A DNA stretch of 64,000 nucleotides from an uncultured Acidobacteriota bacterium (GTDB lineage Bacteria; Acidobacteriota; Thermoanaerobaculia; UBA5066; Gp7-AA6). This document shows, piece by piece, positions 25,628 through 59,526 of the stretch. The translations under genes were made by a program, and so were the position numbers. Where the stretch lies: positions 600,881 to 664,880 of the forward strand of contig CAVXRK010000009.1 of assembly GCA_963764025.1 (NCBI GenBank), read 5' to 3'. The notes beneath the pieces are model-generated. The model had not been told where the DNA came from, made no database searches, and worked only from the letters and a program-made list of their open reading frames with translations. Each line of letters opens with the position of its first letter. Position 1 is the stretch's first letter.

Positions 25628-27202
25628 CAGGTCACCAACCGGACCTCCTCGACCGCCGGCAGGGCGCGGAGGCGGTCGAGAACCGCGGCGGGCGGGGCCG
25701 AGTCGACCGCGATGACGGCCGCGGCGCGCGAGCCGTCGCCTCGGGCGAGCGAGAAGTGGGCGATGTTGACACCGGCTTCGCCGAGGACGGTGCCGACCGC
25801 GCCGACGACGCCCGGAACGTCGTGGTTGCGGATGAAGACCACGGTCCCCTCCGGGTGGAACTCGAGCGGAAGCCCGTCGACCTCGACGACGCGGGCGTCG
25901 CGCCCGATGAAGAGTGTGGCGTCGGCGCTGCCTTTGGACCCCGCCCCCGTGAGCGTGACGCGGATCGAGCGGGCGTAGGCGCCGGGCTCCTCGTGGCGCG
26001 TGTCGGAGACGGCGAGCCCCCGGTCGGACGCCATGTAGAGCGCGTTGACGTAATTGACGACGTCCGGCGTCTGGGCCTCGAGCGCTCCCTTGACCGCGGC
26101 GACGGCGACCGGCCGCACCATGTCCTCGGGCAGGCCCCAGGTCTCGACCGCCAGGCGCGTCAGGCGGCCGCCCGAGAGGGCCGAGAGGAAATGGGCGGTC
26201 CGCTCGGCCAGGCGCATCCAGCCGGCCGCGCCGCCCGAGTCCTTGGGGCCGCGAAACGGCAGGTTCACCGCCGGAACGTACGCCGCGCCGGCAAGGGCCT
26301 CGAGCAGGGCCTCGACGGTCTGGATCGAGACGCGCTCCTGGGCCTCGACGGTCGAGGCGCCGAGGTGCGGCGTCGCGACGACGTTCGGCGAGCTTCGGCA
26401 GGGGGTCGTCCGGCGCGGGGGGCTCGGGATCGAAAACGTCCAGGGCCGCCCCGGCGAGCTTCCCGCTCTTGAGCGCCTCGGTCAGGGCGACGCGGTCGAC
26501 GAGGCTTCCCCGCGCGACGTTGACGAGGACGGCCGAGGGCTTCATGAGGGCGAGCTCCGCCGGCCCGAGCAGCGGCTTTCCCTTCTCCGTTGCGGTCGAG
26601 TGGAGCGTGACGACGTCCGATTGCCGGAGGAGCTCTTCGAGAGGCACGAGCGGCACGCCCATCTCCTGGGCCTTTTCGACCGGGAGGAACGGGTCGTGGC
26701 CGAGGAGCTTCGCCTCGAAGGCCCGGCAGCGCGACGCGACGCGGGAGCCGACCTGGCCGAGGCCCACGATGCCGACGGTCTTGCCCGCGAGCTCGGAGCC
26801 GACGAACTTCGACTTCTCCCAGCGGCCCTGCGCCATCGAGGCGGCCGCCTCCGGCACGCGCCGCAGGAGCGCGAGGAGCACCGCGAACGTGTGCTCGACG
26901 GCCGAGACCACGTTGCCCGTCGGCGAATTGAGGACCATGACGCCGCGCGCGGAGGCCGCGGGCACGTCGACGTTGTCGACCCCGACGCCGGCCCGTCCGA
27001 CGACGGTGAGCTTCGGCGCCGCGGCGAAAAGGGCCGCGTCGACCTTCGTCGCGCTGCGGACGAGCAGCGCGTCGGCGTCCTTCAGGGCCGCGAGCAGCTC
27101 CTCGCGCGAGGCCCCGGCGATGTCGACGACCTCGTGCCCGGCCTTGCGCAGGAGCTCGAGCCCGGCACTCGAGACCTTTTCGGCGACGATGACGCGGCTC
27201 AA
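25624..27202 (-). CDS. serA: D-3-phosphoglycerate dehydrogenase (type I, with ASB and ACT domains), frameshifted in this assembly.
   Basis: The N-terminal 270 aa are in the frame of ORF 24548..27202, with a TTG start at 27202. The C-terminal ~215 aa are in ORF 25624..26268. A single extra base near 26390 separates DDPLPKL from PNVVATPHLGASTVEAQ. Confidence 0.85.
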
Positions 27203-28307
27203 GCGGCGGCGTCTCCCGCGGCCTCGTCGAGCGCCTCGAGGAGCGGTCGAGGGAGGCGAGGTCCACGTCTCCCATGTGCCCGATGCGGAAGGTCGTCGGC
27301 TTCCACTTTCCGTAACCGCCGCCGATCGTGAACCCGCGCTCCTTGACCTTCGCGACGAGGGCCTCCGAGGACACGCCGGCGCGCGGCTTCAGGCACGAGA
27401 CGGTCCAGGATCGCGCTCCGGACGGGGGCGCGAAACCGTGGCCGCGCTCGGCGGCCCAGGCTTCGACGCGCCGCCGCAGGGCCTCGTGGCGGGCCCAGCG
27501 GCCCTCGATTCCCTCCTGCAGGATGTGCTCGAGCTGAACGTCGAGGGCGAAGAGGTGCGGCGTCGAGGGCGTGTACGGCGTCTGGTGCTTCTCCGCGAAC
27601 GACTCGGCCTCCGACAGGCGCAGGTAGTGCGCGCGGGAGCGCTCGCGCGCGCGGGCCCGATAGCGGTCGGACGCGAACGCCACGCCGAGGCCCGGCGGAA
27701 GCGCCAGGGCCTTCTGCGACCCCGCGAGCGCGAAGTCGAGCCCCCACGCGTCGCACTCGACCGGCGAGCCGGCGAGAGAGGTCACGACGTCGCACAGGAG
27801 AAAGGCCTCCGACGACGCGCGGACCGCCCGCGCGATCGCCTCGAGATCGTTGAGCGTGCCGGTCGAAGTCTCCGAGTGGACCACCGTGACGGCCTCGTAC
27901 GGCGCCCGGCCGAGCGCCTTCGCCAGCTCCCCGGGGTCGACCGGACTGCCCCAGGGAACTTCGAGAACGTCGACCGCGAACCCGAGGTCCCGCGCGCAGG
28001 TCGCCCAGCGCTCGGAGAAAGCGCCCGACGTTACTGCGAGCACGCGCTCGGGGGCGAGGTTCAGGAGCGCGGCCTCCCAGAGGCCGGTCGCGGCCGAGGT
28101 CGCGGTGAAGACGAACTTCTCGGTGCGGAAAACCCGCTTCAGCCGGGGCGGAATGCGTGAATACAGGTCCGCGAAGGCCTTGCCCCGGTGCCCGATCGCT
28201 TCGTGGGCCATGGCCTGGCGCACGGCGTCGCGGACCCAGACCGGTCCCGGAAGGAAAAACCGTACCTGTCCCGGCTTCCCGCCGGTGGAATCGAACGAGG
28301 TCGTCAT
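27199..28307 (-). CDS. Class V aminotransferase (AGXT/SerC-like), a candidate phosphoserine aminotransferase. The last ~15 codons are frameshifted.
   Basis: ATG at 28307 (MTTSFDSTGGKPGQVRFFLPGPVWV). The PLP lysine context is SQKAL. After ...HMGDVDLASLDR the reading continues in the +2 frame as LLEALDEAAGDAAA*, giving a TGA at 27199 that overlaps the serA TTG. Confidence 0.8.
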
Positions 28308-28390
28308 GAGGTGGGCGATTCTACGCGAGCCACGCGGGAAGGGCCGAGATCGAATCGAGAAAACCGTCGGCGGATACGCCAAGAAGTTCC

Positions 28391-28963
28391 TCACGCGTCC
28401 GCGAGCCACCCCGGGATCAGAACCACGCGGCACCCCGCGGCGCGGGCGAAATCCGCGTCGACCTCCATGTCGCCGACGCAGATCGTCCGCTCCGCAGGCG
28501 CCCCGGCGCCGGCCATCAGCCGCCGCAGCATGGCGGGGTCGGGCTTGGCGGGCGTCGCCTCGTCCGGCCCCGCGATCGCTTCGAAGCGCGAAACGATGCC
28601 CTTGGCCTCCAGGATCAGCCGGGAGAACGGGGCCGGCTTGTTCGAGGCGAGCGCCATCCGGTGGCCGCGGGCCGAGAGCTCGGCGAGGACGTCGGCGACG
28701 CCGGGCAGGAGGTGCGACTTCTCGACGGCGACCTGCGGGTACCGCTCGCGGAAGAGCCGCACACCCTCGGCCGCCCGCTCCGGCCCGACGGCGTCCGCCA
28801 CGAGCTTCTCGAGGCCGTGGCCGACCATCGTGCGGATCCGGACGTTCGCGAGCGGCTCCTCGCCGAGCGCGCGCATCGCGAAGGAGAGAGCATCCCCGAT
28901 CGCTTCGTAACCGTCGATCAGCGTGCCGTCGAGGTCGAAGACGAGAAACGGAAGTCCGCTCAA
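28391..28963 (-). CDS. HAD-IA family hydrolase (phosphoglycolate-phosphatase-like), a candidate phosphoserine phosphatase.
   Basis: The TTG start overlaps the upstream stop as TTGA. Motif I is FDLDGTL, motif II is ASNK, and motif IV is GDMEVD. Confidence 0.75.
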   Translation of the reverse strand: MSGLPFLVFDLDGTLIDGYEAIGDALSFAMRALGEEPLANVRIRTMVGHGLEKLVADAVGPERAAEGVRLFRERYPQVAVEKSHLLPGVADVLAELSARGHRMALASNKPAPFSRLILEAKGIVSRFEAIAGPDEATPAKPDPAMLRRLMAGAGAPAERTICVGDMEVDADFARAAGCRVVLIPGWLADA

Positions 28964-30651
28964 CCCGTCTTCCGCGCGCCGACCGTCGATTCCGCCCGGT
29001 CGAGCCCCGCCAGGCGCACGACCGCCGACGCGATGCCCTCCCAGTCGCCGAAGGAGAGCGTCGGCACCGACCCGGCGAAGGGCCCGTCCGAGACCCGCAG
29101 CAACGGTTCGACGACGTCGGGCCGCGCGACCCCCGTCCGCACGACCTCGATCTTCGGGATCGGCAGGGACTTGTAGCCTTCGACGAGGACGAGGTCGCAG
29201 TCGGCGAAGTCGCGGCGAAGAACCCGCTCGAGAGTCTCCTCCTCCCCGAAACGGCGCACGGTCGTCCGGCGCGGCGTGACGAAGGCTCCCGCCGCCGCGC
29301 CCGCCGCCGCGTGCCGGTGCGAGTCCTTGCCGGCGACGTCGTCGTCGGCATCCTTGGTCGTGTGCTTGACCGACCCGACCGTCAGGCCGCGAGCCTTCAG
29401 GCGCGGCAGTACTTCGACGATGATCGAGGTCTTCCCGGAATCGTGGCCGCCCACGAACGCGACGACCGCGGGCTTGCGGTCCGGGTAGAGCAGGAACGGC
29501 TCGCGGCGCGCGAAGAACGGCTGCGCCGCGTCGAAGTGACGCGCGATCTCGGCCCGCAGGTTGCCGCCCCGCTCGACGATCTCGCGGTAGCGCTCGGACC
29601 CCGTCAGCAGATCGATCGCCGGGCGGTCGTCGTACTCGTAGCGCTCCGTGCGCCACCGGAAGTCGATCGGGCCAAGGCGGCGGAGCGTTTCGACGACCCG
29701 CAGCCCCGTCTGGAACGGCCGGAAGGCGGCCCTGTCCGTCAGGTGCATCTGCGCCCCGCCGCAGGCCTGGCCGGCATGTTTGTCGAACATCGGCCGGAAC
29801 CTGCACGGAAGAAACTGGACGCCCGGCAGTGCGAGCGCGTTGAGCGCGTCGGCGACCGCGATCGGATCGAGCCAGGGCGCTCCGAAGACCTCGAACGGCC
29901 GCGTCGTCCCGCGGCCCTCGGAAAGGTTCGTTCCCTCGAGCAGGCACATCCCGGGGTAGACGAGGGCCGTGTCCGTCGTCGGCATGTTCGGCGACGGCGC
30001 CACCCACGGCAGGCCGGTCTCCGCGTACGGCGTCTCGCGCGCCCACCCCGCCGCCGGGCAGACGACGAGGTCGAGATCGAGTCGCCTCTCGGCCGCGAAG
30101 AGACGCGCGAGCTCGCCGGCCGTCATTCCGTGGCGCACCGGGATCGGGTGAAGGCCGACGAAGGTCAGGTACCCCGTCGCCTGGGGCGCGCCTTCGACGG
30201 CGCCGCCGATCGGGTTCGGCCGGTCGCAGACGACGAACCGCAGGCGCGAGCCCGCGCAGGCCTCCATCGCGAGGAGCATGGTCCAGACATAGGTGTAGTA
30301 GCGGCTCCCCACGTCGGCCACGTCGAAGACGATCGCTTCGAGGTCGGCGAAATCCTCGCGCCTGGGCTTCAGGTCCTCGGCGGTCGTCCCGTAGAGCGAC
30401 ACGACCGGAAGACCCGAGGGCGGATGGATCGACGAACCGACGGCCTCCATGTAGATCGCGCCGCCCTCGAGACCGTGCTCGGGGCCGAAGAGCCGGACGA
30501 GCCGCACGTTCGGGGCCGCGCGCAGGGCTTTCCACGTCGGCACGCCCGCCGAGGTCATCCCGGAGCCGTTGGTGATCAGACCGATCCGCCTCCCGGCGAC
30601 AGGCCACGGGCTCTCGAGAAGGCCGTCGATTCCGAAGCGGACCTTTTCCAT
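28960..30651 (-). CDS. DUF1343 (NamZ/YzbB-like) domain fused in frame to a MobB-like P-loop domain.
   Basis: 563 aa in a single frame with no stop. Residues 1-~400 are the DUF1343 family. Residues ~405-563 read KPAVVAFVGGHDSGKTSIIVEVL...VKHTTKD...LVLVEGYK, which is MobB. No ATG, GTG or TTG is available at the junction. Confidence 0.7.
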   Translation of the reverse strand: MEKVRFGIDGLLESPWPVAGRRIGLITNGSGMTSAGVPTWKALRAAPNVRLVRLFGPEHGLEGGAIYMEAVGSSIHPPSGLPVVSLYGTTAEDLKPRREDFADLEAIVFDVADVGSRYYTYVWTMLLAMEACAGSRLRFVVCDRPNPIGGAVEGAPQATGYLTFVGLHPIPVRHGMTAGELARLFAAERRLDLDLVVCPAAGWARETPYAETGLPWVAPSPNMPTTDTALVYPGMCLLEGTNLSEGRGTTRPFEVFGAPWLDPIAVADALNALALPGVQFLPCRFRPMFDKHAGQACGGAQMHLTDRAAFRPFQTGLRVVETLRRLGPIDFRWRTERYEYDDRPAIDLLTGSERYREIVERGGNLRAEIARHFDAAQPFFARREPFLLYPDRKPAVVAFVGGHDSGKTSIIVEVLPRLKARGLTVGSVKHTTKDADDDVAGKDSHRHAAAGAAAGAFVTPRRTTVRRFGEEETLERVLRRDFADCDLVLVEGYKSLPIPKIEVVRTGVARPDVVEPLLRVSDGPFAGSVPTLSFGDWEGIASAVVRLAGLDRAESTVGARKTG

Positions 30652-30692
30652 GATCGGCAGGGCGATCTTATCCGCGGCGGCTCACGCGCCCG

Positions 30693-31196: not shown

Positions 31197-31229
31197 TTGG
31201 GCCCCGGCACGCGATTAATATAGACCCCC
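31197..31229. promoter_or_regulatory. 33-nt divergent intergenic spacer between mogA and moaA containing the AT-rich sequence ATTAATATAGA. It is a probable shared promoter core.
   Basis: It is the only AT-rich stretch in a 70% GC context, positioned between the two divergent starts. Confidence 0.3.
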
Positions 31230-32252: not shown

Positions 32253-32265
32253 GTCCCGGGACAAT

Positions 32266-34486: not shown

Positions 34487-35327
34487 CTACTTCGAGTCGC
34501 CGCCCAGGATGAGCGGCAGGCCCTTCGAGTTGCCGATGACGACGATCTTCGAGTTGGGGCTCGCCGCCAGCTTCTCGGTCGCCTCGATGCCCTTCCACTC
34601 CAGGAGCTGCGCCGAGATGCCCTGCGCGACGATCTTCTGGAAATCGGAGATGCCCTGGGCCTCGATGCGCTTCCTCTCGGCTTCCTGCGACTCTTTCTGG
34701 AGGACGAACTTCATCTGCTCGGCCTCCTGCTCCCGCTTCAGCTTCTCCTGGATCGCGTTGGCGACGATCGGCGGCAGCCCGATCTTGCGCAGCAGCACCG
34801 CCTCGGTGATGATCCCCCGGCCGCTCGACATCTTCTGGAAGAGCTCGAAGGTCTCCCGCGCGATCTGCTCCCGCTCGGCCGAGTAGAGGGCCTTGGCCTC
34901 GTAGGAGGCCGTGATCTCGCGGATCGCCGAGCGCATCTGGGGATGCACCGCGATCTCCTGGTAGTTCTTCCCGACGGTCTTGTAGATGTCGGCGGCCTTC
35001 GTCGGGTCGAGGCGGAAGAGAAGCGAGCCCTTCGAGGTCCATCATCAGGCCCTCCTTCGAGGGCACTTCGGTCGTCTCCTTCACTTCCTGCGTCTGGATC
35101 GACATCTTGATGACCCGCGTGAAGGGAAAGACGAGGTGGACGCCCGGCGGCAGGACGCTCGAGGACACGTTGCCGAACAGGTCCTTCACGCCGACGTGGC
35201 CCGCGGGCACGACCGTGATCGGCCCCCCGATGACGATCAACACGAAGACGACGAGGGCGATGATCGCGTTGCGGACGAAGCGGGAGCCCGAGCCCGAGGG
35301 TGGAACGATCTCGAAGGTCTTGTTCAT
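34487..35327 (-). CDS. SPFH/band-7 (prohibitin/HflC-like) membrane protein, frameshifted in this assembly.
   Basis: The N-terminus (MNKTFEIVPPSGSGSRFVRNAIIALVVFVLIV...TTEVPSKEGLMMDLEG) is in one frame. The continuation SLLFRLDPTKAADIYKTVGKNYQEIAVHPQMRSAIRE...SPNSKIVVIG is in the +1 frame, shifted by an extra G at ~35015. Confidence 0.75.
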
Positions 35328-35359
35328 GCTTTCTCCTGGCTGCGACGGGGCGGGGGGTC

Positions 35360-36594: not shown

Positions 36595-36685
36595 GGGGTC
36601 AGGTCTTCACTTTTTCCAATTTCCGACGGGCCGGGCTGGGGGGGTTTGCGGCCGCCGAAATCCGAAAAATGAAGACCTGACCCCC
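36595..36685. repeat. Family A palindromic element, copy 3. The arms are GGGGTCAGGTCTTCACTTTTTCC and GAAAAATGAAGACCTGACCCCC.
   Basis: Read directly. The right terminus ends in CCCCCTA, where CTA is the TAG stop of the mutase gene on the minus strand. It lies between the mutase 3' end and the ribBA 5' end. Confidence 0.8.
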
Positions 36686-38374
36686 TACAACACGACGCGC
36701 GCCGGCTCCTCGTAGGTCGCGAAGACCTCGCGCATGACGTCGGAGATCTCGCCGACCGTCGCGTAGGTCTTGACCGCGTCGACGAGCGGCGGCATGACGT
36801 TCTTCCCGTCCCGGCAGGCCTGCCGCAGGGCCGCGAGCGCGGCCGTGACCGCCCGTCCGTCCCGCGTGCGGCGCAGCTCCACGACGGCCTTCTTCTGCAC
36901 CTCCTCGACCGCGTCGTCGATGGTAGAGGATCTCGAGGGGATGTTCCTCCTCGTCCACGAAGTCGTTGACGCCGACGACGATCTTCTGCTTCGCGTCGAC
37001 CGCGCGCTGGTAGGCGTAGGCCGCGTCCATGATCTCGCGCTGCGGGAACCCGGCCTCGATCGCCTCGACCATCCCCCCGAGCTCGTCGATCCGCCGGAAG
37101 TAGTCGAAGCAGCCGCGCTCCATCTTCGTCGTCAGGTCCTCGACGAAGTAGGAGCCGCCGAGCGGGTCGATCGTGTTGGCGACGCCCGACTCGTGGGCGA
37201 TGACCTGCTGCGTGCGCAGGGCGAGCTTCACGGCGAAGTCCGTCGGCAGGGCGAGCGTCTCGTCGAGCGAGTTGGTGTGGAGGGAGTTCGTTCCGCCGAG
37301 AACGCCGGCGAGTGCCTGGATTGCCGTGCGCACGACGTTGTTGTAGGGCTGCTGGGCCGTCAGCGAGCAGCCGGCCGTCTGGGTGTGGAACCGGCACATC
37401 CAGGAGCGCGGGTCCTTCGCGCCGAAGCGCTCCCGCATCGTCTTCGACCAGATGCGGCGGGCCGCGCGGAACTTGGCGATCTCCTCGAAGAAGTCGTTGT
37501 GCGAGTTGAAGAAGAAGGAGAGGCGCGGCGCGAACTCGTCGACCGGCAGGCCCGCCTCGATCCCGTATTGAACGTACTCGACGCCGTCCCGCAGCGTGAA
37601 GGCGAGCTCCTGGAGGGCGGTCGAGCCCGCCTCGCGGATGTGGTACCCCGAGATCGAGATGGTGTTCCACTTCGGGACGTGCTTCGCGCAGAAAGCGAAC
37701 TGGTCCGTCACGAGCCGCATCGAGGGCCGCGGCGGGAAGATGTACTCCTTCTGGGCGATGTACTCCTTGAGGATGTCGTTCTGCAGCGTGCCGCCGACCT
37801 TCTCCCACGGCGTCCCGTGCTTCTCGGCGACCGCGAGGTACATCGCCAGCGCGATCGGGGCCGTCGAGTTGATCGTCATCGAGGTCGTGACGCGCCCGAG
37901 ATCGATGCCGTCGAAGAGGACCTCCATGTCGCGGAGCGAATCGATTGCGACCCCGCACTTGCCGACCTCGCCGCGGGCCATCTCGTGGTCCGAGTCGTAG
38001 CCGTAAAGGGTCGGCAGGTGAAAGGCCGTCGAGAGCCCCGTCTGGCCGTGGTCGAGGAGGTAGTGGAAACGCTGGTTGGTCTGCTTCGCCGTGCCGTAGC
38101 CGGCGAACTGGCGCATCGTCCAGAGCTTGCCGCGGTACCCCGTCGCCTGGACGCCGCGGGTGAACGGGTGTTCGCCGGGCCAGCCGAGGTCGCGCTCGAA
38201 GTCGAAGCCCGGCTGCGTGTCGGGAGCCGCGAGCGGCTCGACCGGCGCGCCCGAAACCGTCGTCCAGTCTCGCTTCCAGGCCGCCGCCTTCTCGAATGCC
38301 TTGCCGGACTTCTCGGCCCAGCGCCGGCGGCCGGCCGCGACCGCCTCGGGCACCAGCGGGTCTTTGTCGCTCAT
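36685..38374 (-). CDS. Methylmalonyl-CoA mutase-family large (substrate-binding TIM-barrel) subunit lacking a B12 domain (split type), frameshifted near the 3' end in this assembly.
   Basis: ATG at 38374 (MSDKDPLV...). Reads [35 protein letters not shown]. After ...PLEILY the frame shifts because of an extra C at ~36925, continuing as [16 protein letters not shown]...[30 protein letters not shown]. Confidence 0.8.
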
Positions 38375-38988: not shown

Positions 38989-39795
38989 TTGCCCCCGATG
39001 AACCGTGCTCCGGTCTGGCTGCGATCTCTCTTCTGTCTGGCGCTGGCGGCCGGGTGCTCCGGCGCGGGCCGCCGCGACGCGGCCATCACCCAGCGCGTCC
39101 GGTCGGTCATGGAAAGCGACCCGATCGTCCAGAGTCCGGACCTCTCGATCACGACCCGCGCGGGGGTCGTCACGCTCGAGGGCGAGGTTCCCGACGAGTT
39201 CGCGCACCTGCGCGCGGTCGAGATCGTCCGCCAGACCCCCGGCGTCGTTCAGGTCGTCGACCGCCTCCGCACGCCTTCGCTCGGCATGCCGGCGGGAGCG
39301 CCCGTCCTCGTGCCCCGCGCGGTCCGGGCCTCCCTGCCCGCCTCGCGCCCGGAGCGAGGGCCCGCCGTCGAAGGAGCAGCGGCGGCCGCGGAGGCTCCGG
39401 AGCTCGTGCCCGCGCGGACCGGCGAAATCGAACTCGAGGCCGCCCCGCCGGCTCCGGCGGAACGCGATGCAGCGCCCGCCACTCCGTCGGAGCCGCAGGC
39501 CCCGGCCGCCGAGGCCTGGACGGCCGGCGCGCCCGACGTCCCCCCCGCGTCCCCGGCACTGGATCTTCCGGTGGCCATGTCGGACGAGGACGCGGCGATC
39601 TCGGTCGGCGTCCGCGCGAGGGTCGAAGAAGTCGCGCCGAGCGGCCGCATCCAAGTCGCGACCCGGCGCGGCGTCGTCACCCTGTCCGGCGTCGTCGACA
39701 CGGAGCTCGAAAAATCGCAGGCGCTCCAGGCCGCCCGGGGCGTCCCGGGCGTCGAACGGGTCGAGGACCGGATCCTGGTGCTACGTTCCTGCCTA
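38989..39795 (+). CDS. BON-domain lipoprotein (two BON domains). The 3' end is uncertain.
   Basis: Signal peptide with lipobox LAAGC. BON repeats read ITQRVRSVMESDPIV...VVQVVDRL and ISVGVRARVEEV...VERVEDRI. The ORF has no stop at the expected end (~39800) and runs antisense through the aldolase gene to 41133. Confidence 0.6.
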
Positions 39796-45336: not shown

Positions 45337-45786
45337 ATGAGGTTCGACGGAACCGTCACGATCAAGGCGCCCCGGGCCGTCGTCTGGGCCTACCTGACCG
45401 ACCCGAACGAGGTCTCGAAGAGCGCGCCGGGCCTCGAAAAGCTCGAGATCGTCGAGCCCGGGAAGAAGTTTCGCGCGACGACGTCGGTCGGCTTCGGGGC
45501 CGTCAAGGTGCGCTTCGTCAACGACGTCGAGTGGGTCGAGCTCGATCCGCCGAACCGCGCGCGCATGAAGGCCCACGGCACCGCGCCGGGCTCCGGCGTC
45601 GACGCGACGACGTCGATGACGCTGACCGACGGTCAGGACGGTGCGACGGACCTCGCGTGGACGGCCGACATCAACGTCGTCGGAACGGTCGCGAGCATGG
45701 CCGCGCGCCTGATGGGCGGCGTGACGAAGAAGCTGACCTCCGCGTTCTTCGACAAGGTGCGCGAGGAGATCGAAGCGAAGCCGTAG
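45337..45786 (+). CDS. coxG: CoxG-family SRPBCC protein.
   Basis: 149 aa: MRFDGTVTIKAPRAVVWAYLTDP. Confidence 0.8.
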   Translation: MRFDGTVTIKAPRAVVWAYLTDPNEVSKSAPGLEKLEIVEPGKKFRATTSVGFGAVKVRFVNDVEWVELDPPNRARMKAHGTAPGSGVDATTSMTLTDGQDGATDLAWTADINVVGTVASMAARLMGGVTKKLTSAFFDKVREEIEAKP

Positions 45787-45999
45787 AGGCTCCCGGAATC
45801 GCGGCGCGACCAAGTTTCGCGACGTGACCGAGCGAAACGACTCGCGCCGCGGGAGCCGGAGCGCAACGAGCGGGGCCAGGCTCGCGGTCGAGCGCGCATC
45901 CGCGCGAGCCGCGAGCCGGTGCGCCGTCAGGCGCAGGCCCCCGAGCAAGCGAAGGCGACGTGCGGTGGTAGACTCCCGCCCCTCAGCGGGAGGCAGTTC

Positions 46000-46464
<465 letters not shown>

Positions 46465-46472
46465 GGGGCGAC

Positions 46473-48824
<2,352 letters not shown>

Positions 48825-48828
48825 CGCG

Positions 48829-49695
48829 ATGTACTCCTCGAGCTTCGAATACTTTCGCCCGAAGACCCTGGCCGAGGCGGCCCGGCTCCTCCAGAAGCAC
48901 AAGGGGGCGCGCCTCCTCGCCGGTGGCCACAGCCTCCTGCCCGCCATGAAGTTCAAGCTGGCGACGCCCAAAGCGCTCGTGGACCTCGCCGCGATTCCGG
49001 GACTGTCCGGAATCAAGGCGAAGGGCAAGACCGTCGAGATCGGCGCGATCACGACCCACGCGGAGATCGCCGCATCCGCCGTCGTCAAGAAGGCCTGTCC
49101 CATCCTGGCCGAAGCCGCCGCGCAGATCGGCGACCTCCAGGTCCGCAACCGGGGCACGATCGGCGGCTCGATCGCCCACGCCGACCCGGCGGCCGACTTC
49201 CCCACCGTCCTCGTGGCGCTCGGCGCGACCATCGTCGCGAAGGGTCCGAAGGGCGCGCGGAAGATCGCGGCCGACAAGTTCTTCGTCGACCTCTTCGCGA
49301 CGGCGTTGAAGAGCGGCGAGATCGTGACGTCGATCGTCGTCCCGGCCGCCGGCAGGGGGACCGGCGCGTCCTACTTCAAGCACCCGCATCCCGCGTCCCG
49401 CTACGCCGTCGTCGGCGTGGCCGCGATCGTCGAGGTCAAGGACGGAAAGGTCGCCCGCACGAGCCTCGTCGTCGGCGGCACGACGCCGAACCCGGTCCGC
49501 GCGGCGGCGGCCGAGGCGGCGCTGACCGGACAGAAGGCCGACACCGCGTCGATCGCCGCGGCCGCCGGAAAGGTCGCCGGCGCGATCTCGGATCCCCTGA
49601 GCGACACCTACGCTTCGGGCGAATTCCGCGTCCACCTGGCGACGGTTCTCTCGAAGCGCGCCCTCGGGGCGGCGGTCGACCGGGCGCGAGGCTGA
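48829..49695 (+). CDS. coxM: FAD-binding medium subunit (CoxM-like).
   Basis: 288 aa with a FAD-binding PCMH fold (LLAGGHSLLPAMKF). Confidence 0.85.
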   Translation: MYSSSFEYFRPKTLAEAARLLQKHKGARLLAGGHSLLPAMKFKLATPKALVDLAAIPGLSGIKAKGKTVEIGAITTHAEIAASAVVKKACPILAEAAAQIGDLQVRNRGTIGGSIAHADPAADFPTVLVALGATIVAKGPKGARKIAADKFFVDLFATALKSGEIVTSIVVPAAGRGTGASYFKHPHPASRYAVVGVAAIVEVKDGKVARTSLVVGGTTPNPVRAAAAEAALTGQKADTASIAAAAGKVAGAISDPLSDTYASGEFRVHLATVLSKRALGAAVDRARG

Positions 49696-49746
49696 CCTCG
49701 GCCGCACTGGAGCTCGGGCGCCGGGCCGGCACATAATCGCGGCGGA

Positions 49747-50760
49747 ATGCGCGACATCCTGACCGACGTCGAACGGTGGAAGGCCGAGGACCGGCCGATC
49801 GCCATTGCCACGGTCGTCGAGACCTGGGGTTCGGCGCCGCGGCCGGCGGGCGGCAAGCTCGGATTGACGGCCGACGGGCGCATCGCGGGGTCGGTCTCGG
49901 GCGGCTGCGTCGAGAACGCCGTGGTCGAGGCGGGGCGCAAGACCCTTTCGTCCGGTACGCCGCAGCTCCTGCACTACGGAGTCTCGGACGACACCGCGTG
50001 GAGCGTGGGGCTTGCCTGCGGCGGATCCCTCGACGTCTTCGTCGAGCGTCTCGACCCGGAGATCTTCGCGGCCGTCGCCGACGCGCTCCATCGGCAGAAA
50101 CCGGTCGCCGTCGCAACCGTGATCCGCGGGCCCGCCGGAACATTCGGCAAGAAGCTCGCCCTCCTCGAGGACGGCAGCGTCCGGGGCGGGATCGACGAGG
50201 CCGCCCTCGCGGAAACGCGCTCGGCCCTCGCGGCCCGATCGAGCCGGCGCGTCGCGGCCGGCGATCGCGAAATTTTCGTCGACGTGCTCCTGCCCGCGCC
50301 GCGGCTCGTGATCGTCGGCGGCGTGCACATCGCGGTCACCCTCGTGACGCTCGCGAAGACGCTGGGCTTTCGCACGATCCTCGTCGACCCTCGCGAGGCC
50401 TTCGGCAACGCGAAGCGCTTCCCCAACGCCGACGAGATCGTCAACGACTGGCCGGACAAGGCGCTCGAGCGCGTCGCGCCCGACGGCTCGACCGCCGTCG
50501 CCGTCTTGACGCACGATCCCAAGCTCGACGACCCCGCGCTCCTGACGGCCCTCCGCGGCCGGGCGTTCTACGTCGGGGCGCTCGGCTCCAGGCGCACCCA
50601 GGAGAAGCGGCGGGCGCGACTGACCGAGGCCGGGCTCCCCGCCGACGCCCTCGCCCGCCTCCACGCGACCGATCGGCCTGCCCCTCGGCGGGCGTTCGCC
50701 CGAGGAGATCGCCGTCGCGATCCTCGCCGAGATCGTCGCCGCCCGGAACAAGGGGGCTTA
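49747..50760 (+). CDS. XdhC/CoxI family molybdenum cofactor insertion accessory protein. The last ~30 codons are frameshifted.
   Basis: MRDILTDVERW...SVSGGCVEN... After LARLHA, an inserted A at ~50668 shifts the frame. The corrected reading is PIGLPLGGRSPEEIAVAILAEIVAARNKGA*, stopping at ~50760. Confidence 0.75.
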
Positions 50761-52468
50761 GGCGACTCCTCCGGACCCGAGACGCAGCAGCGCCTCCCGG
50801 AGCCTCGCGTGCCTCTGCAGGAGGCGCAGGTAGCTCCTCTCGTGACGCGCGGCCTTGGCCCGGACGATCTCTACGACGGCGGCCTTCTCGGCGGAAGCCC
50901 AGCGGGAGAGGTCGGGGACCAGGTCGAGCGCGAGTGCGAAGTCCCCGAAGAAGTCGCCGGGCGGGCGGCGAGAGCGTCCGGGTCGAAAGGCCGAGCGCCC
51001 GCGCGACGCGAGTCTCGGCCCTCTTCCGCAGCCGGGCGGCGTCGAGCCCCCGCTCCCGCATCCGGCGATTGATCCGGAGTCCGATGCGGCGGACGTGAAA
51101 GCGATCCCAGGCCCCGGAGACGGTGCCGGGCGCGTCGTAGATCAGGTTGCGCTCGACGAGGCGCTTCAAAGTCGCGCGCGAGGATCGGTGCCCGGGGTCC
51201 CGTGCAATGCGGGCCTCCTCGCGGTCGACGAGCGCCCGGGCGTTCCCGCTCGTCGGTCGAAAGCCGAGCTTGCGGTAGAACCAGAAGGCCCCGGACGCGA
51301 GCGCCTCCTCGTTCTCGTAGCCGAGCTGGTAGGGGTCGATCGAGAAGGACGTCACGCCGAGGGCGTCGCGGTGGAGCTTCAGGACCTGCGCGTAGATCCA
51401 GGCCGACTCGCCCTCCCGAAACGTGTAGTACATGTTGAAACCGATCTCGAGGCGCTCGAAGAAAGCCAGGCCCTCGATGTACCCGATCGGCACGCCGTTC
51501 TTGATGACGAAGCCGCCGTACGCCGAGCGCAGCGGAAGCCGCCGCTCCGGCAGGACCCCGACGAGGAAGAGCTCGACGCCGCGGCCCGGGCGCGCAGCGA
51601 CGACCGAGGTCGGGTCGGCGTGCGTGAACGTATAGAACTCGCGGTACCTCGCCGTCGTGGCCTCCCGCACCCGGTCGCAGAGACGCTCTCCCTCCCTCCG
51701 CGGGAGCCTTCGGAGGGCGAGCGGCGGGCCCGACATCACCGCGTCGAGCGAGACATCCCGCCGCGTCAGAAACGGGGCGTCGTGAAAGAACGCCGCGGCT
51801 CCCGGCACCCGCATCCGCGTTCGGGAGGCCGGGCCCTCGCCGAGATCCCAGGTGATCGGAACTTCGAGAGAGTCGAAGCGATCGGGGGCGAGCGCCGGCG
51901 GACCGGCCAGCCGCTCGTAGCGGTCGAGCAGCCAGGCGGGGTCGTCCCGGCGCCTCCCCGCCGCCGCGGCGAGCCAGTCGAGGTACGGGACGTTGGCGTC
52001 GGCGAGCGCCTCTTCCTCGAGGAGCGGAACGAACTCGGGCCACGCCGTCCGCATGCGCTCCTCCGACGCCCCCGCGTCCCAGGCGAGCCGCACGCGCCGG
52101 GGAAACCGCCGCGACAGCCAGCGCACGAGCTCGAAGGAGAAATCGGTGCCGATCGTGGTGCCCGCGATGCCGGCGACCTCCGGGGCATCGAAGGGCGACA
52201 GGTCCTCGCCGGCCGAATCGAGCGCGGCGACGCGGCGACCGAGCGTCGCGAGAAGACCGTCGGCGAGATCGCGGACGCGGCGGCTGTGGGGGTAAGCCCG
52301 AAGGAACATCAGCGCGTCGTGCAGCCGGATGAGGTCTCCCGCGTCGCGCAGGACGAGGCCCCGTGCGTCGCGGATCGCCCGCTCGGCCTCGCGCGCCCCG
52401 GGACGCCGATGGCGGACGTCTTCGAGTCGGCGCAGGATCGTCTCGGCTCGGCTCGACACGGCGCGCAT
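50757..52468 (-). CDS. Conserved hypothetical protein (~570 aa). The 3' third is spread over three frames.
   Basis: ATG at 52468 (MRAVSSRAETILRRLEDV...). About 440 aa are continuous, including GFVIKNGVPIGYIEGLAFFERLEIGFNMYYTF. The C-terminus is recoverable in other frames (…FDPDALAARP / …FALALDLVPDLSRWASAEKAAVVEIVRAKAARHERSYLRLLQRHARLREALLRLGSGGVA*). Confidence 0.5.
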
Positions 52469-52503
52469 GCTACTTCGATATATGCTCCGCCGCTCGGAGG
52501 ATC

Positions 52504-53362
52504 CATGACCACGATTCGCGCCATCCGCGCGGCGGCCGCCCTCTCGCTCGCGCTTTCGGCGTCCGCCCTCGGGCAGGCCCCGACGCCCGCGCCCGCAGCC
52601 GCTCCTCCGGCCGCACCCGCCCCGAAAGCCGCGAGCCCGAAGCCCCCCTCGGCCGAGGCGCAGGCGGCCGGCAAGGCGCTCCTCGCGAAGGTCGTGGCGT
52701 GGCTGGGCGGCGAGAAGAAGGTCGCCGGCGTGCGGGACGTCCAGACGAGGGGCCAGCTCACCGCGAAGACTCCCGAGGGCGACGCCACCATGGAAGTCCA
52801 GAGCGCGATGGTGTTTCCCGACCATCTCTTCCAGCAGATCGACTCCCCTTACGGCCGCATCGCCATGGTCGTCACGCCCCGGGAGGCCTTTCTCTTCGCC
52901 CCGAGCGGCTCGCAGGACCTTCCGCCCGTCGTCCGGTCCGAGCTGCTCAAGCAGATCCAGCGGATCCCGCTTCACCTGGTCCAGAAGGCGGCGGACCCGA
53001 AGCTCGTCGCCGCCGCGGCCGGCACGGCGAAGGTCGGCGAGATCGACGCCGCCCTGCTCGACCTGCGCTATGGCGAGGTCGCCGTGCGTTGGTTCGTGGA
53101 GCCCGCGACGGGAAAGATCGTACGGACCGAGCACATGACGACGACCCCCGAAGGCAAGACCGCGCAGATGGTTTCGGATTACTCCGACTACAAGATCGTG
53201 GACGGCTTCCCGATCGCCCACCGTCTCGAGGTCTGGACCAACGGCGAGAAGGACCAGACGCTCGTCATGGACGAATGCAAGATCAACGCGGGAATCGATC
53301 CGAAACTCTTCGAGAAGCCGCCGCCGGCGACGACGAAGGCTCCGGCCGCGCCGAAGAGCTGA
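52504..53362 (+). CDS. Secreted LolA-like/outer-membrane lipoprotein-sorting family protein (COG2834-like).
   Basis: A GGAGGA RBS precedes the ATG. Signal peptide MTTIRAIRAAAALSLALSASALG. An Ala/Pro-rich linker precedes the beta-rich domain. Confidence 0.55.
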
Positions 53363-54630
53363 CGTCACCCGCCCTGGGCGGGACGCCGGACGGCGGCTCC
53401 GAAAGCTCGGGCACTGCGCAGCCGTTCCTGGCCGGCTTGCCGTCGAGCCGGTCGCGCATCCACTGGACCGCGCTCGTCGCGCTCGCGCGCTCCGCCCGCA
53501 GATGGTCGACGCCGGGCAGCACCTCGTACCGGACGATCTCGCCCGACCGGCAGAGCGCGCCGACGAAGTCGGAGGTGACCGAGGGTCGGACGATCGTGTC
53601 CTCGCTCCCCTGCGCGACGTAGACGGGCGCCCCGATCCGCTCCCGGCCGGGGCGATTTTCCTCGAGCAGGCGCTTCCAGGGCTCGCGGGACAGCGCTCCC
53701 GGAAGAAGCATGCCTCCCGGCAGCGGCAGTCGAGTCGAAGGCGGCGCGGTATGCCTCGCCGTCGGTCTCGACGCAGTCGCGCGCGGTCCGGTCGATCGCG
53801 GAACGATCCGCGGGCGAGACGACCTCGTCGAGCGGCGCGCCGTAGACCTGCGACCAGCTCCAGAGCGCGTAGGCGCCGAGAATGCGGCCGGCCCGCTCGG
53901 ACAGGTCGTCCTCGAGCAGGACCCCCAGGTTCGTGGCCGGGGCGATTGCGGCCACGCCCGAGAGCGCGAGCTCCGGTGCGTAGGTTCGGGCGAGCTGACC
54001 GGCGAAGAGGGCGGCCTGGCCGCCCTGCGAGTGTCCCCACACGACAAACCGCGCGCCGGCCCCGCCTCCGGGATCCCCTTCGCGGCGCGCACCGAGTCGA
54101 GCACCGCGCGCCCCTCGCTCTCCCCGACGAGGTACGGGTGGACGCCGGCCGTCCCCAGGCCCGGGTAATCCGTGGCCACGACGACGTCGTCGAGCGCCAT
54201 CAACGCGAGCCAGGTGCGGGATGGTGTCGAAGAAGTCGGGGTTGACCGAGGGCGCGCAGGCATCCGACACTCCCGTCGTCGGATGAGCCCAGGCCACGAC
54301 GCTGCGACCGGCCGCCGGAGCCGGCAGTTCCGGCGCGATGACGACCCCGGAGACGGCGATGCGCCGGCCGTCGAGGCCGGTCGAGGAGTAGAGCACCTTC
54401 CAGGCCCGAGCGCCCGGCGGCGCCCCGTCGAGCTTCTCTGATCGGATCAGCCCGCCCGGAGGCGGGAGCTCACGCCGGGGAGTCGCATAGAAAGAGTCCG
54501 GCGTGCCCGGCGCCCCCGCGCACCGCACGCAGGAAGGCGAACCGCCAGGACGAAAACGACGGCTCGGCGCAAGCGGGAGAAAGTTTACGCTCGGCGGAAG
54601 GAACGTGGACGCGAAACCGTTTCGCGTCAC
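53283..54630 (-). pseudogene. Secretory lipase (LIP family, alpha/beta hydrolase) interrupted by at least three frameshifts.
   Basis: LIP-family segments alternate between two frames. The order is AHPTTGVSDACAPS, then (shift) TDYPGLGTAGVHPYLVGESEGRAVLDSVRAAK, then (shift) VVWGHSQGGQAALFAG...APATNLG, then (shift) APVYVAQGSEDTIVRP...LPGVDH. The junctions lie at ~54190, ~54030 and ~53720. Confidence 0.65.
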
Positions 54631-54787
54631 GCGATATTCGACCGGGGATTACGCGGGCGAGAGCGTCCCACGAACGCTCCTCGCCGGCGAGCGCCCGACA
54701 CGAAAGGGCGCGTGGAACCGGGGAAGGCTACAATCCCCCCGCAAGAACGATGAGAATCCTCACGCGCAAGCCGGGCGGCGTCTCCCC

Positions 54788-55545
54788 ATGATCTGCGCCC
54801 GCTGCCAGACGCTGAACCCGGATCCGGCCGAGAACTGCCTGAGCTGCGGGCTCGTCTTTGGGGGCGTTGTCGTGCCGGAGGAGTCCGTCGCCGCCGAGCT
54901 GACCTCCGTGCCCACGATGGGCAGTCCCTCGTCCTTCAAGCAATGGGCCAGCCAGTCGGTGCGGGGCGTGGCCTCGGTCGTGTTGCCGGCGGGGCTCGAG
55001 ATCGGTCACCGGTACCGGGTCAAGAGCCTTCTCGGCATGGGAGGCATGGGCGCCGTCTATCTCGTGCACGACAAGGAGCTCGACCGGGACGTCGCCCTGA
55101 AGCTCATCCGCTCCGACATCGCCGAGGACGCCGATGCGCTGGAGCGCTTCAAGCGCGAGATCCAGCTTTCGAGCCGCGTGACGCACCCCAACGTCCTGCG
55201 CGTCTTCGACCTCGGCGAGATGGACGGCATCAAGTTCCTGACGATGCAGTTCGTCGACGGGCGGGACCTCTCGACGATCCTGAAGAAGCAGGGGAAGCTC
55301 CCGACCGAGCGCCTCCTGCGCGTCTTCCGCCAGACGGCCGAAGGCCTCAAGGCCGCGCATGACCAGGGGGTCATTCACCGCGACCTGAAACCCCAGAACA
55401 TCATGCTCGACGCCTCGGACCGGGTCTACGTCACCGACTTCGGCCTGGCGAAGTCAGCCGAGCAGTCGGGAATGACCCAGACGGGCGCCGTCATCGGGAC
55501 CCCGTTCTACGCGCGGGCTTTTCGATTCGCGACCTTTGGCCTATG
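54788..55545 (+). pseudogene. Ser/Thr protein kinase fragment. It has an N-terminal zinc ribbon and kinase subdomains I-VIII, and is truncated after GTPFY.
   Basis: MICARCQTLNPDPAENCLSCG...GMGGMGAVYLVHD...HRDLKPQNIML...VTDFGLA...GTPFY. It then runs straight into a low-GC promoter-like sequence preceding the E2 gene. No frame encodes subdomains IX-XI. Confidence 0.7.
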
Positions 55546-55568
55546 CTGTCGGAGCGAGGGAGGTTTTC

Positions 55569-56991
55569 ATGTCGACTCCGGTAATCATGCCCCAGATGGG
55601 CGAGTCGATCGCCGAAGGCACCATCACCAAGTGGCTCAAGAAGGTCGGCGACACCATCAAGCGCGACGAGCCGATCTTCGAGATCTCGACGGACAAGGTG
55701 GACGCCGAGATACCCTCCCCCGTCGCCGGCACGCTGACCGAGATCAAGGTCGCCGAAGGCCAGACCGTGGCCATCAACACCGTCGTCGCCGTCATCGGCG
55801 AGGCGGGAACGGCCGCGGCTTCCGCTCCGTCCCCGGCGCCTCCGGCCCCGGCGCCGGCCGCGCCCCCTCCGGCCGCTCCGAAGGCCCCGGAACCGCCGCC
55901 GGCCCCGAAGGCCGAGGCGAAGCCGGCTCCGCCCCCCGCTCCTGCCGCCGCGCCGCCCTCCCCGGCGCCGGCGCCGGTCGCGGCACCTCGGGTCGAAGCG
56001 CCCTCCGGCGGGCAGGTCGAGTCGATCGAGGAACGCATCCGCCGGAAGTCCTCGCCCCTCGTGCGCAAGATCGCCCAGGAGAACTCCCTCGACATCGGCG
56101 ACATCGAGGGGACCGGCATTCACAATCGGGTGACCAAGAACGACGTCCTCTCGTACCTCGAGAACCGCAAGGTGGCGCAGGCGCCGATCCGCGGATCGGC
56201 CGTCCCGGCCGAGGCCCCGTCCGTCGGCCGCGCCGAGCCCATCGAGGCATCCCCCGCGCCGCGCCCCGCCATCTCCGTGACCGACCGCGACGAGGTCGTC
56301 GCGATGACGAAGATCCGCAGGATCACGGCCGAGAACATGATCCTCTCCAAGAGGACCTCGGCCCACGTGACGACCGTCTTCCAGGTCGACTACTCGAACA
56401 TCGCGAAGATCCGCGGCCAAGCACAAGGACGACTTCGTCGCCAAGAACGGCGTGAAGCTGACCTACCTGCCGTTCATCTTCCGGGCCGCGATCCAGGCGA
56501 TCCGCCAGTTCCCGCAGGTCAACGCGTCGATCGACGGCGAGAACATCGTCTACCACAAGGACGTCAACCTCGGCATGGCCGTCGCGCTCGACTGGGGCCT
56601 GATCGTTCCGGTGATCAAGAACGCCGACGAGAAGTCGATCCTCGGACTCGCGCGGAGCTCGCAGGACCTCGCCGAGCGCGCGCGCACCAAGCGGCTGAAG
56701 CCCGAGGAGATCCAGGGCGGCACCTTCACCGTCACGAACCCCGGCGTCTACGGCGGACTCTTCGGAACGCCGATCATCCCGCAGCCCCAGGTCGCGATCC
56801 TCGGCGTCGGAACGATCGAGAAGCGGCCCGTCGTCGTGACCGACGAGAACGGGCAGGACGCGCTCGGCATCCGGACGGTCGGCTATCTCGCGCTCTCCTT
56901 CGACCACCGGCTGATCGACGGCGCCGACGCCGACAAGTTCATGGCCGCGATCAAGACGACGCTCGAGACCGGAGAGTTTGATCTCGGGTAG
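55569..56991 (+). CDS. Dihydrolipoamide acyltransferase (E2) of the 2-oxoacid dehydrogenase complex, frameshifted at ~56416 in this assembly.
   Basis: A GGGAGG RBS precedes the ATG. The lipoyl domain shows IEVDKV/STDKVDAEIPSP. An Ala/Pro linker and PSBD follow. The catalytic domain continues in ORF 56452..56991 (DHRLIDGA) after an extra G in ...KIRAKHKDDF. Confidence 0.85.
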
Positions 56992-58260
56992 TCCCCGGCA
57001 GATTCCTCGACTCGGCCGCCGCGTCGGTGCGGCGATCTTTCTCCTCGCCCTCGCCGCGCGCCTCGCGGCGGCGGCGGGCGTCGGATTTTCGACCGTGCGG
57101 TTCGCCGATGCGCCCGCGTACCTGTTCGGCGCCCGGGCCCTCGCCGAGACGGGCCACTATCCACGGCGGACCGATGCGTTCCTCTTCCGGCCCCCCGGGC
57201 TATTCCGCCTTCATCGCCGCAGTCGACGCTCGGCCGCCCGGACCGGATCGCGGCCGCCAAGGTCGCGGGAGCATGTCGCCGGTGCGCTCTCAGCCGTCCT
57301 TCTTGCCGCCCTCTCGGCCCGCCTCTTCCGTCGGCGTGCCGTCGCCGTAGTGACCGGCGGGACCGCGGCCCTCCATCCGACCCTCGTTCTCGCCTCCGCC
57401 GACATCCAGTCCGAGCCGCTCTTCCTGCTGTTGCTCCTCTCGGCCGGCTACGTCCTGCTCGCAGCCGCCGACCGCCCGTCCTCGAACCTCGCGCTTGTGC
57501 GCCGGCGCCCTCCTCGCGCTGGCGGCATTGACGCGCTCCTCGGCGCTCGTTCTCGTGCCCCTTCTCCTCTCTCCCCTCTTCGATCACCGCTACCCTCGCC
57601 GCGCCGGCCTCCACGTCGCCCTCTCCGCCCTCCTCGGCTTCGGCCTCGCGCTCGCGCCCTGGATCGTGCGCAATGCGCTCGTCTTCCGGGAGCTCATTCT
57701 CGTCAACGACGGCGCCGGATACGTCTTCTACGGGCGCAACTCCGATGCGGCCCTCGGGCTCGCCGCCGCACGAACGCGCGAGGAGCTTGCCTCGGCCTCC
57801 GACGCGCTCGAGCAGCGCCGGTTCGAGCTCATCTCGGCGCTGCCGGCCGAGATTCGCGGAGCGCCCGGGCGCCTCTCGCGCGCTCTGTTCTCGGCGGCCC
57901 TCGCCGAAAGGCTCGCCGACCCGGCCGGGTCCGTGCGGCTCCTCGCCTGGAAGGCCCGCGACTGGCTGCGACCCTGGCCGGACCCGAGGTACTGGAGGCG
58001 CGGAGCGGTCGTCGCGCTCGGCGCGTACTTCACGCTTCTGTACCTCGCCGCGGCGATCGGCCTCGCGCGCGCGAAGCGGCGGGGCGCGCGGACCTTCGCC
58101 CTCGTCTTTCTCGCCCTCACGTTCGCGTTCCACCTCGCCTTCGAGACGAGCTGGCGTTACCGCGGCGGCCTACTGGGACCCCGTGCTCCTGCTCTATGCC
58201 GTGCCGGGGGCGGCATCGTTCCGGCGCCGCCGGGACTCGACCGACATCCCCGCCGCATGA
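56978..58260 (+). CDS. GT39/ArnT/PMT_2-like polytopic membrane glycosyltransferase, paralog 1, with about four frameshifts in this assembly.
   Basis: TTG start at 56978. FADAPAYLFGARALAETGHYP matches the first periplasmic loop with its D motif. Segments are recoverable across ORFs 56978.., 57027.., 57495.. and 57673... The C-terminus ...WRYR/AAYWDPVLLLYAVPG is homologous to paralog 2. Confidence 0.6.
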
Positions 58261-59526
58261 CGCTCGGGTGGCGCGGCGGACTCTCCCTGTTTCTGCTGGC
58301 GCTCGCCGTCCGCCTCGCCGCAACCGCGGCCGTCGGGGTTCTCGACGACGGGGTTCGGCGACGCGGGCCGGTACATTTTCGCGGCCTCCGAGCTCGCCCG
58401 GACGGGGCAGTACCCGGACCGCACGGAGCCGTTCTTCTTCCGGCCTCCGGCCTACCCGGTCTTCCTCGTCGGCGCGACGCTCGGCCGGCCCGAGGAGCGC
58501 GTGGCATGGGCGAAGCTCGCCAACGGCATACTCGGCGCCGCCGCCGCAGTGCTTCTCGCGATGCTTTCGGCGCGGATCTTCGGCCGACGGCCGATCGCGC
58601 TGGCGACCGGCGTGGCGGCGGCCTTCCACCCGAGCCTCGTGCTCCTTTCGACCGACGTCCAGAGCGAGCCGCTCTTTCTGGTCTTGCTTCTGTCCTCGGG
58701 TCTGCTGCTGCTCTCGGCGGCGGACAGCACGTCGACCCGCCGCGCGGTCTTCGCGGGAGCGCTCCTGGGCCTCGCGGCGTTGACGCGCCCTTCGGCCCTG
58801 GCTCTCGCTCCCCTTCTCGCCGCGCCCTTGCTCGACCGGCGAACGCGGGGCCGCCTCCGGATTCGCATGGCGGCCGGCGCGCTCGCGGGCCTGGTTCTCG
58901 CCCTCGCCCCGTGGACGATACGAAACGCCGTCCGCTTCCACGAGCTCATCCCGGTCAGCGACGCCGGCGGGGTGAGCCTCTATGCCGGCAACTCGCCCTG
59001 GACACGGCGCTTCTACGCCCTTCGGACGCGCGAGGAGTACGAGCGCTGGCTCGTGAACTTCGACCGCGATCTGCGGGACCGGCTCGCCTCGATCGAGCGG
59101 AGCGGCGCCGACACTCCCGGCCGCCGGTCCGCCGCCTTCGCGCACATGGCGATCGAGGACGCTCGCGCCGATCCCGGCGCGAGCCTGCGCCTGCTGGCGC
59201 GGAAAGCGTGGCAGTGGGTCCGCCCCTGGCCCACGCCCTGGTTCTGGCCCCGCCCGGTCGTCGCCGCGATCGGCGCTCTTTACATCCTCCTGTACGCCGC
59301 CGCGGCCCCTGGGCTCTGGCGCGCGCCGCGGCGCGGTGTCGCCGCCTTCTGCTTCGCGGTGCTCGTCGTGAGCATGGTCGCCCACGTCCTGCTCCAGGTC
59401 GTCTGGCGCTACCGGGTGCCGTACTGGGACCCCGTCTTGCTCCTCTACGGCGTCTATGGAGCCGCGCAGTGGCTTCCCGTCCTCCGTGGCGCTCGACCGA
59501 GGGATTCCGGGGACGGGAGTTCTTGA
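58258..59526 (+). CDS. GT39/ArnT/PMT_2-like membrane glycosyltransferase, paralog 2, with one frameshift at ~58345.
   Basis: The ATG overlaps the paralog 1 stop as ATGA. Reads MTLGWRGGLSLFLLALAV...VLDDG, then (shift) FGDAGRYIFAASELARTGQYP...WRYRVPYWDPVLLLYGVYG. Confidence 0.65.

Follow-up and report, generated by a model that had tools for sequence, protein, structure and literature searches.

Clustered single-base frame breaks in a 64-kb stretch of a Thermoanaerobaculia genome are very probably consensus errors of long-read assembly

We examined a 64-kb stretch of DNA (the window; ~70% G+C) on contig CAVXRK010000009.1, from a metagenome-assembled genome (MAG) of an uncultured Thermoanaerobaculia bacterium (Acidobacteriota), in which many conserved genes are interrupted by single-base frame breaks. 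We are confident that these breaks are consensus errors, left by the assembly and polishing of a MAG probably built from Nanopore reads only, and not mutations of the organism; the affected genes are almost certainly intact, and only their gene calls unreliable. Between 26.4 and 58.4 kb, 11 conserved genes carry 19 single-base insertions or deletions (indels), 17 of them insertions and two deletions (Table 1). As judged by comparison of sequences, the indels are private to the window's assembly, and errors of the same type occur elsewhere in sister assemblies belonging to the same series of the European Nucleotide Archive (ENA).

That the frame breaks exist in the sequence is agreed by three independent methods. 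A codon-usage Viterbi path was computed over the six frames, and a stop/start test was applied at each same-strand frame change. From 1 to 26.3 kb all such changes lie at most 27 nt from the upstream gene's stop and are thus ordinary gene boundaries, while beyond 26.3 kb there are 14 frame changes with no stop nearby. A Pfam scan of the gene pieces tested whether one domain profile continues from one frame into another. A purpose-written frameshift-aware protein-to-DNA aligner was run on orthologues drawn from 160 related loci and then on sister-strain proteins; against the orthologues each event was placed consistently with at least four references, and window-anchored nucleotide alignments to sister strains gave further placement.

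All 19 events lie inside 32.1 of the 64 kb (p ~2e-6), in clusters at 26-28.5, 35-37 and 50.6-58.4 kb. Broken genes make up 11 of the ~32 in that part and none of the ~24 in the unaffected part (Fisher p = 0.0013), and the variance/mean ratio of events in 4-kb bins is 3.5, so that the clustering is far beyond chance. With these methods the window's coding sequence showed no frame-breaking indel up to 26.3 kb or beyond 58.4 kb. An earlier note, written from the letters of the window, had counted at least 17 single-base breaks at 26-59 kb and none in the first 26 kb, and had held long-read assembly error to be the simplest cause; the present analysis confirms the first two statements in substance and strongly supports the third. 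Its single breaks in serA, the aminotransferase, the mutase, xdhC, E2 and the second GT39 gene were recovered as one event each. Its list was right in substance and needs amendment in six places: the kinase has no frameshift and is truncated at 55510, the extra base in the SPFH gene is a T (+ strand) at 35031 rather than a G at ~35015, the hypothetical protein gene has one break instead of two, the lipase has five instead of three (54528 and 54539 being new), the first GT39 gene has five instead of four, and the insertion in the HAD hydrolase gene had been missed.

Table 1. Genes with single-base frame breaks in the window, and the truncated kinase gene. INS, one-base insertion; DEL, one-base deletion; positions are those of the window.
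Gene	Coordinates	Strand	Events and remarks
serA, D-3-phosphoglycerate dehydrogenase, long form with ACT domain	25627..27202	-	INS 26389
Class V aminotransferase	27202..28307	-	DEL ~27244, 14 codons ahead of the stop
HAD-family hydrolase	28324..28963	-	INS 28408 (28408-28411), giving a premature stop at 28391
SPFH/Band 7 protein	34490..35330	-	INS 35031 (35030-35031; TT vs T; extra T, + strand)
Methylmalonyl-CoA mutase large subunit	36701..38374	-	INS 36922 (GG vs G)
xdhC-type molybdenum cofactor insertion chaperone	49747..50764	+	INS 50668
Conserved hypothetical protein (566 aa in sister locus L170)	50770..52468	-	INS ~50953
LIP-family secretory lipase	53286..54605	-	INS 53731, DEL 54063, INS 54210, INS 54528, INS 54539
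Ser/Thr protein kinase fragment, catalytic profile positions 1-163 of 263 (Pfam)	54780..55510	+	Clean junction, no frameshift
E2 dihydrolipoamide acyltransferase (473 aa corrected)	55569..56991	+	INS 56414
GT39/PMT_2 glycosyltransferase paralogue 1 (GT39-1)	56978..58260	+	INS 57191, 57225, 57273, 57493, 58164
GT39/PMT_2 glycosyltransferase paralogue 2 (GT39-2)	58257..59526	+	INS 58335

Six assemblies of the same species as the window, at 95-99% nucleotide identity, served for comparison, among them ENA ERZ25039487, 490, 492, 502 and 554, whose records are named 'contig_N' in the style of Flye. Their loci (labelled L164-L172 and L174-L176) jointly span 4.1-64 kb of the window, and those used below are L165, L166, L167, L169, L170, L171, L172 and L176; L161 and L162 are more distant loci of the same ENA series. 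Where a same-species sister covers a site and aligns cleanly, it lacks the window's indel; this holds for all 19, and for sixteen of them no covering sister at all has the indel (2-4 sisters per site). L176 is the sole clean sister at 26389 and 27244, which L169 also covers but with too many errors of its own, and the sole covering one at 35031; the three events were polarised against 8, 2 and >8 intact homologues, respectively. In pairwise alignments with the covering sisters no window lesion is common to any of them. An apparent sharing with L166 at 57266/57273, seen in a MAFFT alignment, was resolved by pairwise alignment as private to the window. Comparison with orthologues and more distant relatives, a route the earlier note had suggested, likewise found the orthologues to read on in a single frame.

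Gene by gene, the domain profiles and alignments tell the same story. In serA, 2-Hacid_dh_C is read in one frame and PGDH_inter plus ACT in the other, with a one-base insertion placed at 26386-26389 against eight homologues and also found against L176. The aminotransferase lacks one base at 27244 relative to the intact proteins of L162 (368 aa) and L176 (369 aa), and its C-terminus (...ALLEALDEAAGDAAA, then the stop) carries on in the other frame. The same holds for the HAD hydrolase, whose C-terminus (GSRTREELLGV...WLA, then the stop) continues in the other frame past an insertion. Alignment with four relatives puts this insertion at 28411, and neither L169 nor L176 shares it. Band_7 positions 2-65 and 64-175 of the SPFH protein lie in two frames, and the extra base is absent from 10 of 10 relatives in nucleotide alignment, the aligner placing it at 35030. 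For the mutase the two frames hold MM_CoA_mutase 2-448 and 444-511; the extra base is absent from 10 relatives and private against four sister strains. XdhC_C is divided into 1-103 and 102-125, and the insertion responsible is private against L170, L171 and L172, with backing from nucleotide and protein alignments of relatives. The hypothetical protein gene shows a single insertion against L170, L016, L007 and L004, private against three sisters. A second break there, suggested at ~52485 by a tblastn scan and also claimed in the earlier note, was not reproduced in alignment with L170, L016, L007 or L004, and is in fact the divergent start region of two genes, the hypothetical (- strand) and a 285-aa gene at 52505-53359 (+ strand).

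The lipase and GT39-1 are the most heavily hit. The LIP profile runs across three frames (28-59, 71-119 and 198-286), the aligner gives an insertion, a deletion and an insertion against six relatives, and none of the five lipase events occurs in L170, L171 or L172; two of the five, 54528 and 54539, fall in the N-terminal (signal peptide) region. In E2, 2-oxoacid_dh 3-53 and 47-226 are in different frames, with an insertion at 56415 against six short-read (JGI) relatives. Against six relatives GT39-1 has five insertions and GT39-2 one, at 58332-58341. The events in E2 and both GT39 genes are private to the window against four sisters.

The sisters in turn carry private indels of their own, in genes other than those broken in the window. 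There are 245 over 20 kb of L169 (between 1 and 54 per 2 kb, and up to ~11/kb), 61 in L172 and 20 in L166, while the 30 of L171 are all within 46.86-49.61 kb, where they shatter the xdh/cox large subunit gene that is intact in the window; this gene is in pieces in L172 also. E2 is broken in L166 and L167, and lipA in L167. In L165 the genes for E2 (473 aa), GT39-1 (425 aa) and GT39-2 (422 aa) are all intact, as are those for xdhC, the hypothetical protein, the lipase and coxL in L170. A living cell could not tolerate the ~11 indels per kb of L169, so these lesions must be technical, and those of the window are of the same kind. Regions dense in errors tend to coincide between assemblies, though the sites differ. 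The window shares 25-33 kb with sample 490, and 36-38 and 50-58 kb with sample 492; samples 492 and 502 share 47-49.6 kb. Such agreement hints at a heterogeneous population rather than at chance alone. In the more distant loci L161 (10001-11534) and L162 (5811-7388), too, the 2-Hacid_dh and ACT parts of serA are separate pieces, and the L161 aminotransferase has frameshifts of its own.

The errors have a distinctive spectrum. Private one-base changes in the coding sequence of the sisters number 285 insertions and 44 deletions; G or C makes up 83% of the inserted bases, and 19% of the insertions copy an adjacent base, compared with 55% expected by chance, the commonest changes being CC to CGC and GG to GCG. 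In the window, with its 17 insertions against two deletions, 13 of the 17 inserted bases are G or C. Most of them differ from both neighbours, and no motif is common to the 17 insertion contexts. The window errors are thus not of the homopolymer type but mostly G/C insertions that do not copy a neighbour. A homopolymer context, to which the earlier note had looked, was not borne out: the insertions lie largely outside homopolymers, and only that at 57191 adjoins a run (five C).

When the 19 bases are removed or added, all 11 genes become full length, with no in-frame stop in any of them. The ratio of nonsynonymous to synonymous change (pN/pS) against the sisters is 0.03-0.34 for the broken genes (0.34 for the lipase and 0.20 for GT39-1) and 0.00-0.76 for unbroken ones. 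Protein identity is as high downstream of the breaks as upstream (96-97% and 92% in the mutase). Corrected GT39-1 (425 aa) aligns over 100% of its length, at 89% identity, with the intact 425-aa P0185, and a search for a closer short-read allele found none above that 89%; the corrected GT39-2 open reading frame (ORF) is 422 aa and stop-free. Synonymous divergence (pS) of GT39-1 between sister strains is 0.28, against 0.07-0.08 in flanking genes, which suggests a recombined or hypervariable segment. An association of broken genes with more diverged segments, by pS, is suggestive window-wide, does not appear within a single reference strain, and is not claimed here. The two GT39/PMT_2 paralogues stand in tandem (56978-59526) between E2 and lipB, where many distant relatives have one.

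The kinase gene ends differently from all of these. Homology to the kinases of relatives (at least 463 aa, several ending at a locus edge) stops in all relatives at 55510, mid-catalytic domain, after GTPFY, and homology to the sister strains resumes in all at 55511-55516. Between these two points L166 has an extra 2.4 kb and contig_201026 of ERZ25039502 has ~7 kb, holding the remaining kinase, a Big_3_5 protein and a large hypothetical protein. No microhomology was seen at the junction 55510|55511, which, on the alignments, may mark either sequence truly deleted from this strain, in a variable region, or a mis-join made in assembly.

Could the strain instead be losing the 26-59 kb gene block through real frameshifts, the genes being backed by a second copy elsewhere or under relaxed selection? 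The packing of many hits into one half of the window, the five hits each in the lipase and GT39-1 and the truncated kinase adjacent to them would suit such pseudogenisation, and dense frameshifts in recognisable genes recall genomes in reductive evolution such as that of Mycobacterium leprae. Those genomes, however, also combine in-frame stops and deletions with relaxed selection and with lesions common to a lineage, none of which is seen here: the 11 corrected genes contain no nonsense codon, their pN/pS is like that of intact neighbours, and every lesion is private to one assembly, with none shared among relatives. Bacterial mutation is biased toward deletions, the opposite of the 17 to two excess of insertions. 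Among the genes hit are serA, E2 and the mutase, and sister assemblies of the same ENA series bear like lesions at densities that a living cell could not sustain. We regard pseudogenisation of the block as very unlikely. A restricted version, in which most breaks are errors and the 53-58 kb portion (lipase, kinase, GT39-1) is truly decaying or rearranged, has a slim chance. It is favoured by the clean structural junction in the kinase, where the sisters also differ from each other by 2.4 to ~7 kb, by the raised pS of GT39-1, and by the tandem paralogue GT39-2, which could render GT39-1 dispensable. Yet GT39-1 and the lipase are stop-free and under purifying selection, their lesions share the G/C-insertion character of the artefacts elsewhere, and the sample 492 assembly (L172, L166) is error-dense in the same region at different sites. 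The coordinated decay that the earlier note had kept in play for a subset, naming the lipase and the kinase fragment, finds no support for the lipase or for GT39-1, given their pN/pS; it keeps some chance only for the kinase truncation, which is a structural difference and not a frameshift.

A further possibility is recoding, in which real extra bases would be bypassed by programmed ribosomal frameshifting or transcriptional slippage. A one-base shift does restore every gene, nearly all shifts have the same direction, and a one-base frame change inside a functional gene is also what +1/-1 frameshifting in prfB and dnaX or homopolymer slippage in endosymbionts amounts to. Those systems, however, depend on a slippery sequence that is conserved, or on a poly(A)/poly(T) tract, at a conserved position, and programmed frameshift sites are conserved among orthologues; the 17 insertion sites share no slippery motif or homopolymer, and the sisters and all orthologues read through in a single frame without the extra base. 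The chance of recoding is close to negligible.

Consensus error accounts for the findings as follows. The sisters lack the window's indels and have private insertion-biased clusters of their own, and the broken genes show neither stops nor relaxed selection. In parts of the contig the assembler and polisher would have left spurious single bases behind, usually a surplus G or C that does not copy a neighbour, and would occasionally have dropped a base, each error splitting one intact gene into two reading frames. The proximate cause is likely to have been low local read depth, or reads of co-occurring strains mixed in consensus building and polishing. Indels in Nanopore consensus are known to produce frameshifted gene calls, above all at less than ~40-fold coverage (PMC9262707). 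The Microflora Danica pipeline used Flye (--meta --nano-hq) and one round of Medaka, with short reads for binning only and no short-read polishing (PMC12313526). The ENA series ERZ250394xx-955x includes a contig of a Microflora Danica Nanopore MAG (ERZ25039597:contig_394 = CAWGOM010000007.1, MFD09730.bin.2.99), and the shared accession series suggests that the window and its sisters came through one pipeline. Circumstantially, the NCBI and ENA source tag, the sister strains and the error spectrum point to the Microflora Danica long-read data set as the origin of the window itself. The xdh/cox-type large subunit of the window (46473-48821) has its best relatives, at 82-89% amino acid identity, in Thermoanaerobaculia/Acidobacteriota MAGs, many of them long-read MAGs of Microflora Danica ('MFD...') in megabase contigs. 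A protein identical to the window's LipB (59572-60249), together with others identical to window proteins, is present on contigs of the sister assemblies named above. Exact look-up places ten window proteins in public collections, six of them on one contig tagged NCBI and ENA. The window resembles the indel errors of Nanopore-only Flye plus Medaka assemblies, the problem addressed by the IDEEL test (PMC9262707), in that private, clustered single-base indels split conserved genes with no accompanying nonsense mutation or change in selection, and in a likely source pipeline without short-read polishing (PMC12313526).

Several points weigh against consensus error. The textbook Nanopore error is a homopolymer deletion or length error, while 17 of 19 events here (and 285 of 329 in the sisters) are insertions, mostly of G or C outside homopolymers. 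The errors are recognised by comparison rather than from reads or coverage, and, the sisters being only 95-99% identical, a real strain-specific mutation is conceivable at any single site. Under a uniform rate, five hits each in the lipase and GT39-1 exceed the expectation from length. The membership of the source contig in Microflora Danica is, as said, a circumstantial matter. There is a small chance that one of two other accounts is needed: that the 53-58 kb island (lipase, truncated kinase, GT39-1) is truly inactivated in this strain, in which case the 55510|55511 deletion and part of its ten indels would be real; or that the basecaller or polisher failed systematically. The latter could underlie the non-homopolymer G/C insertions clustered in similar regions of six independent assemblies, with DNA modification or the mixing of strains as possible triggers in GC-rich genomes.

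If the breaks are consensus errors, as we hold, they are an artefact rather than a biological feature and bear on annotation quality only. The calls for serA, the aminotransferase, the HAD hydrolase, the SPFH protein, the mutase, xdhC, the hypothetical protein, the lipase, E2 and the two GT39 proteins are split or truncated by the artefact, and these genes need frame correction before metabolic inference, pseudogene counts or protein-family clustering. Protein databases built on such assemblies will contain fragments, and fragmented proteins from assemblies of the L161/L162 type are already there. Quality checks focused on homopolymers would miss the clustered non-homopolymer G/C insertions of this GC-rich lineage.

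Some approaches gave misleading signals. Frame plots of G+C at third codon positions and raw ORF lists were too noisy at 70% G+C, because long ORFs occupy all frames, and the codon-usage Viterbi path was used in their place. One spurious ORF of 1199 aa spans 50441-54040 on the - strand; owing to the G+C content, such ORFs run antisense to or across real genes. Relatives carry equally long shadow ORFs on both strands, which give false 'frameshift' signals in tblastn. A tblastn frame-switch scan with the stop-to-stop ORFs of relatives was abandoned, its false events arising from antisense shadow ORFs and from the relatives' own errors.

Apart from the frame breaks, the window has private indel patches (including 4-, 5-, 6- and 16-nt indels) at 4359-4440, 13154-13259, 36617-36698, 39786-39791, 41017 and 62325. 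They occur only in spacers or at or after stop codons, leaving coding sequence untouched, and are probably real strain differences or alignment noise. A molybdenum hydroxylase cluster of the coxG-coxS-coxL-coxM-xdhC type (45337-50764) is intact in the window save for the xdhC insertion. Upstream of it, at 28.9-34.5 kb, lie genes for the molybdenum cofactor: moaA, moaC, a mobA-like gene, MoCF_biosynth and a NamZ-MobB fusion.

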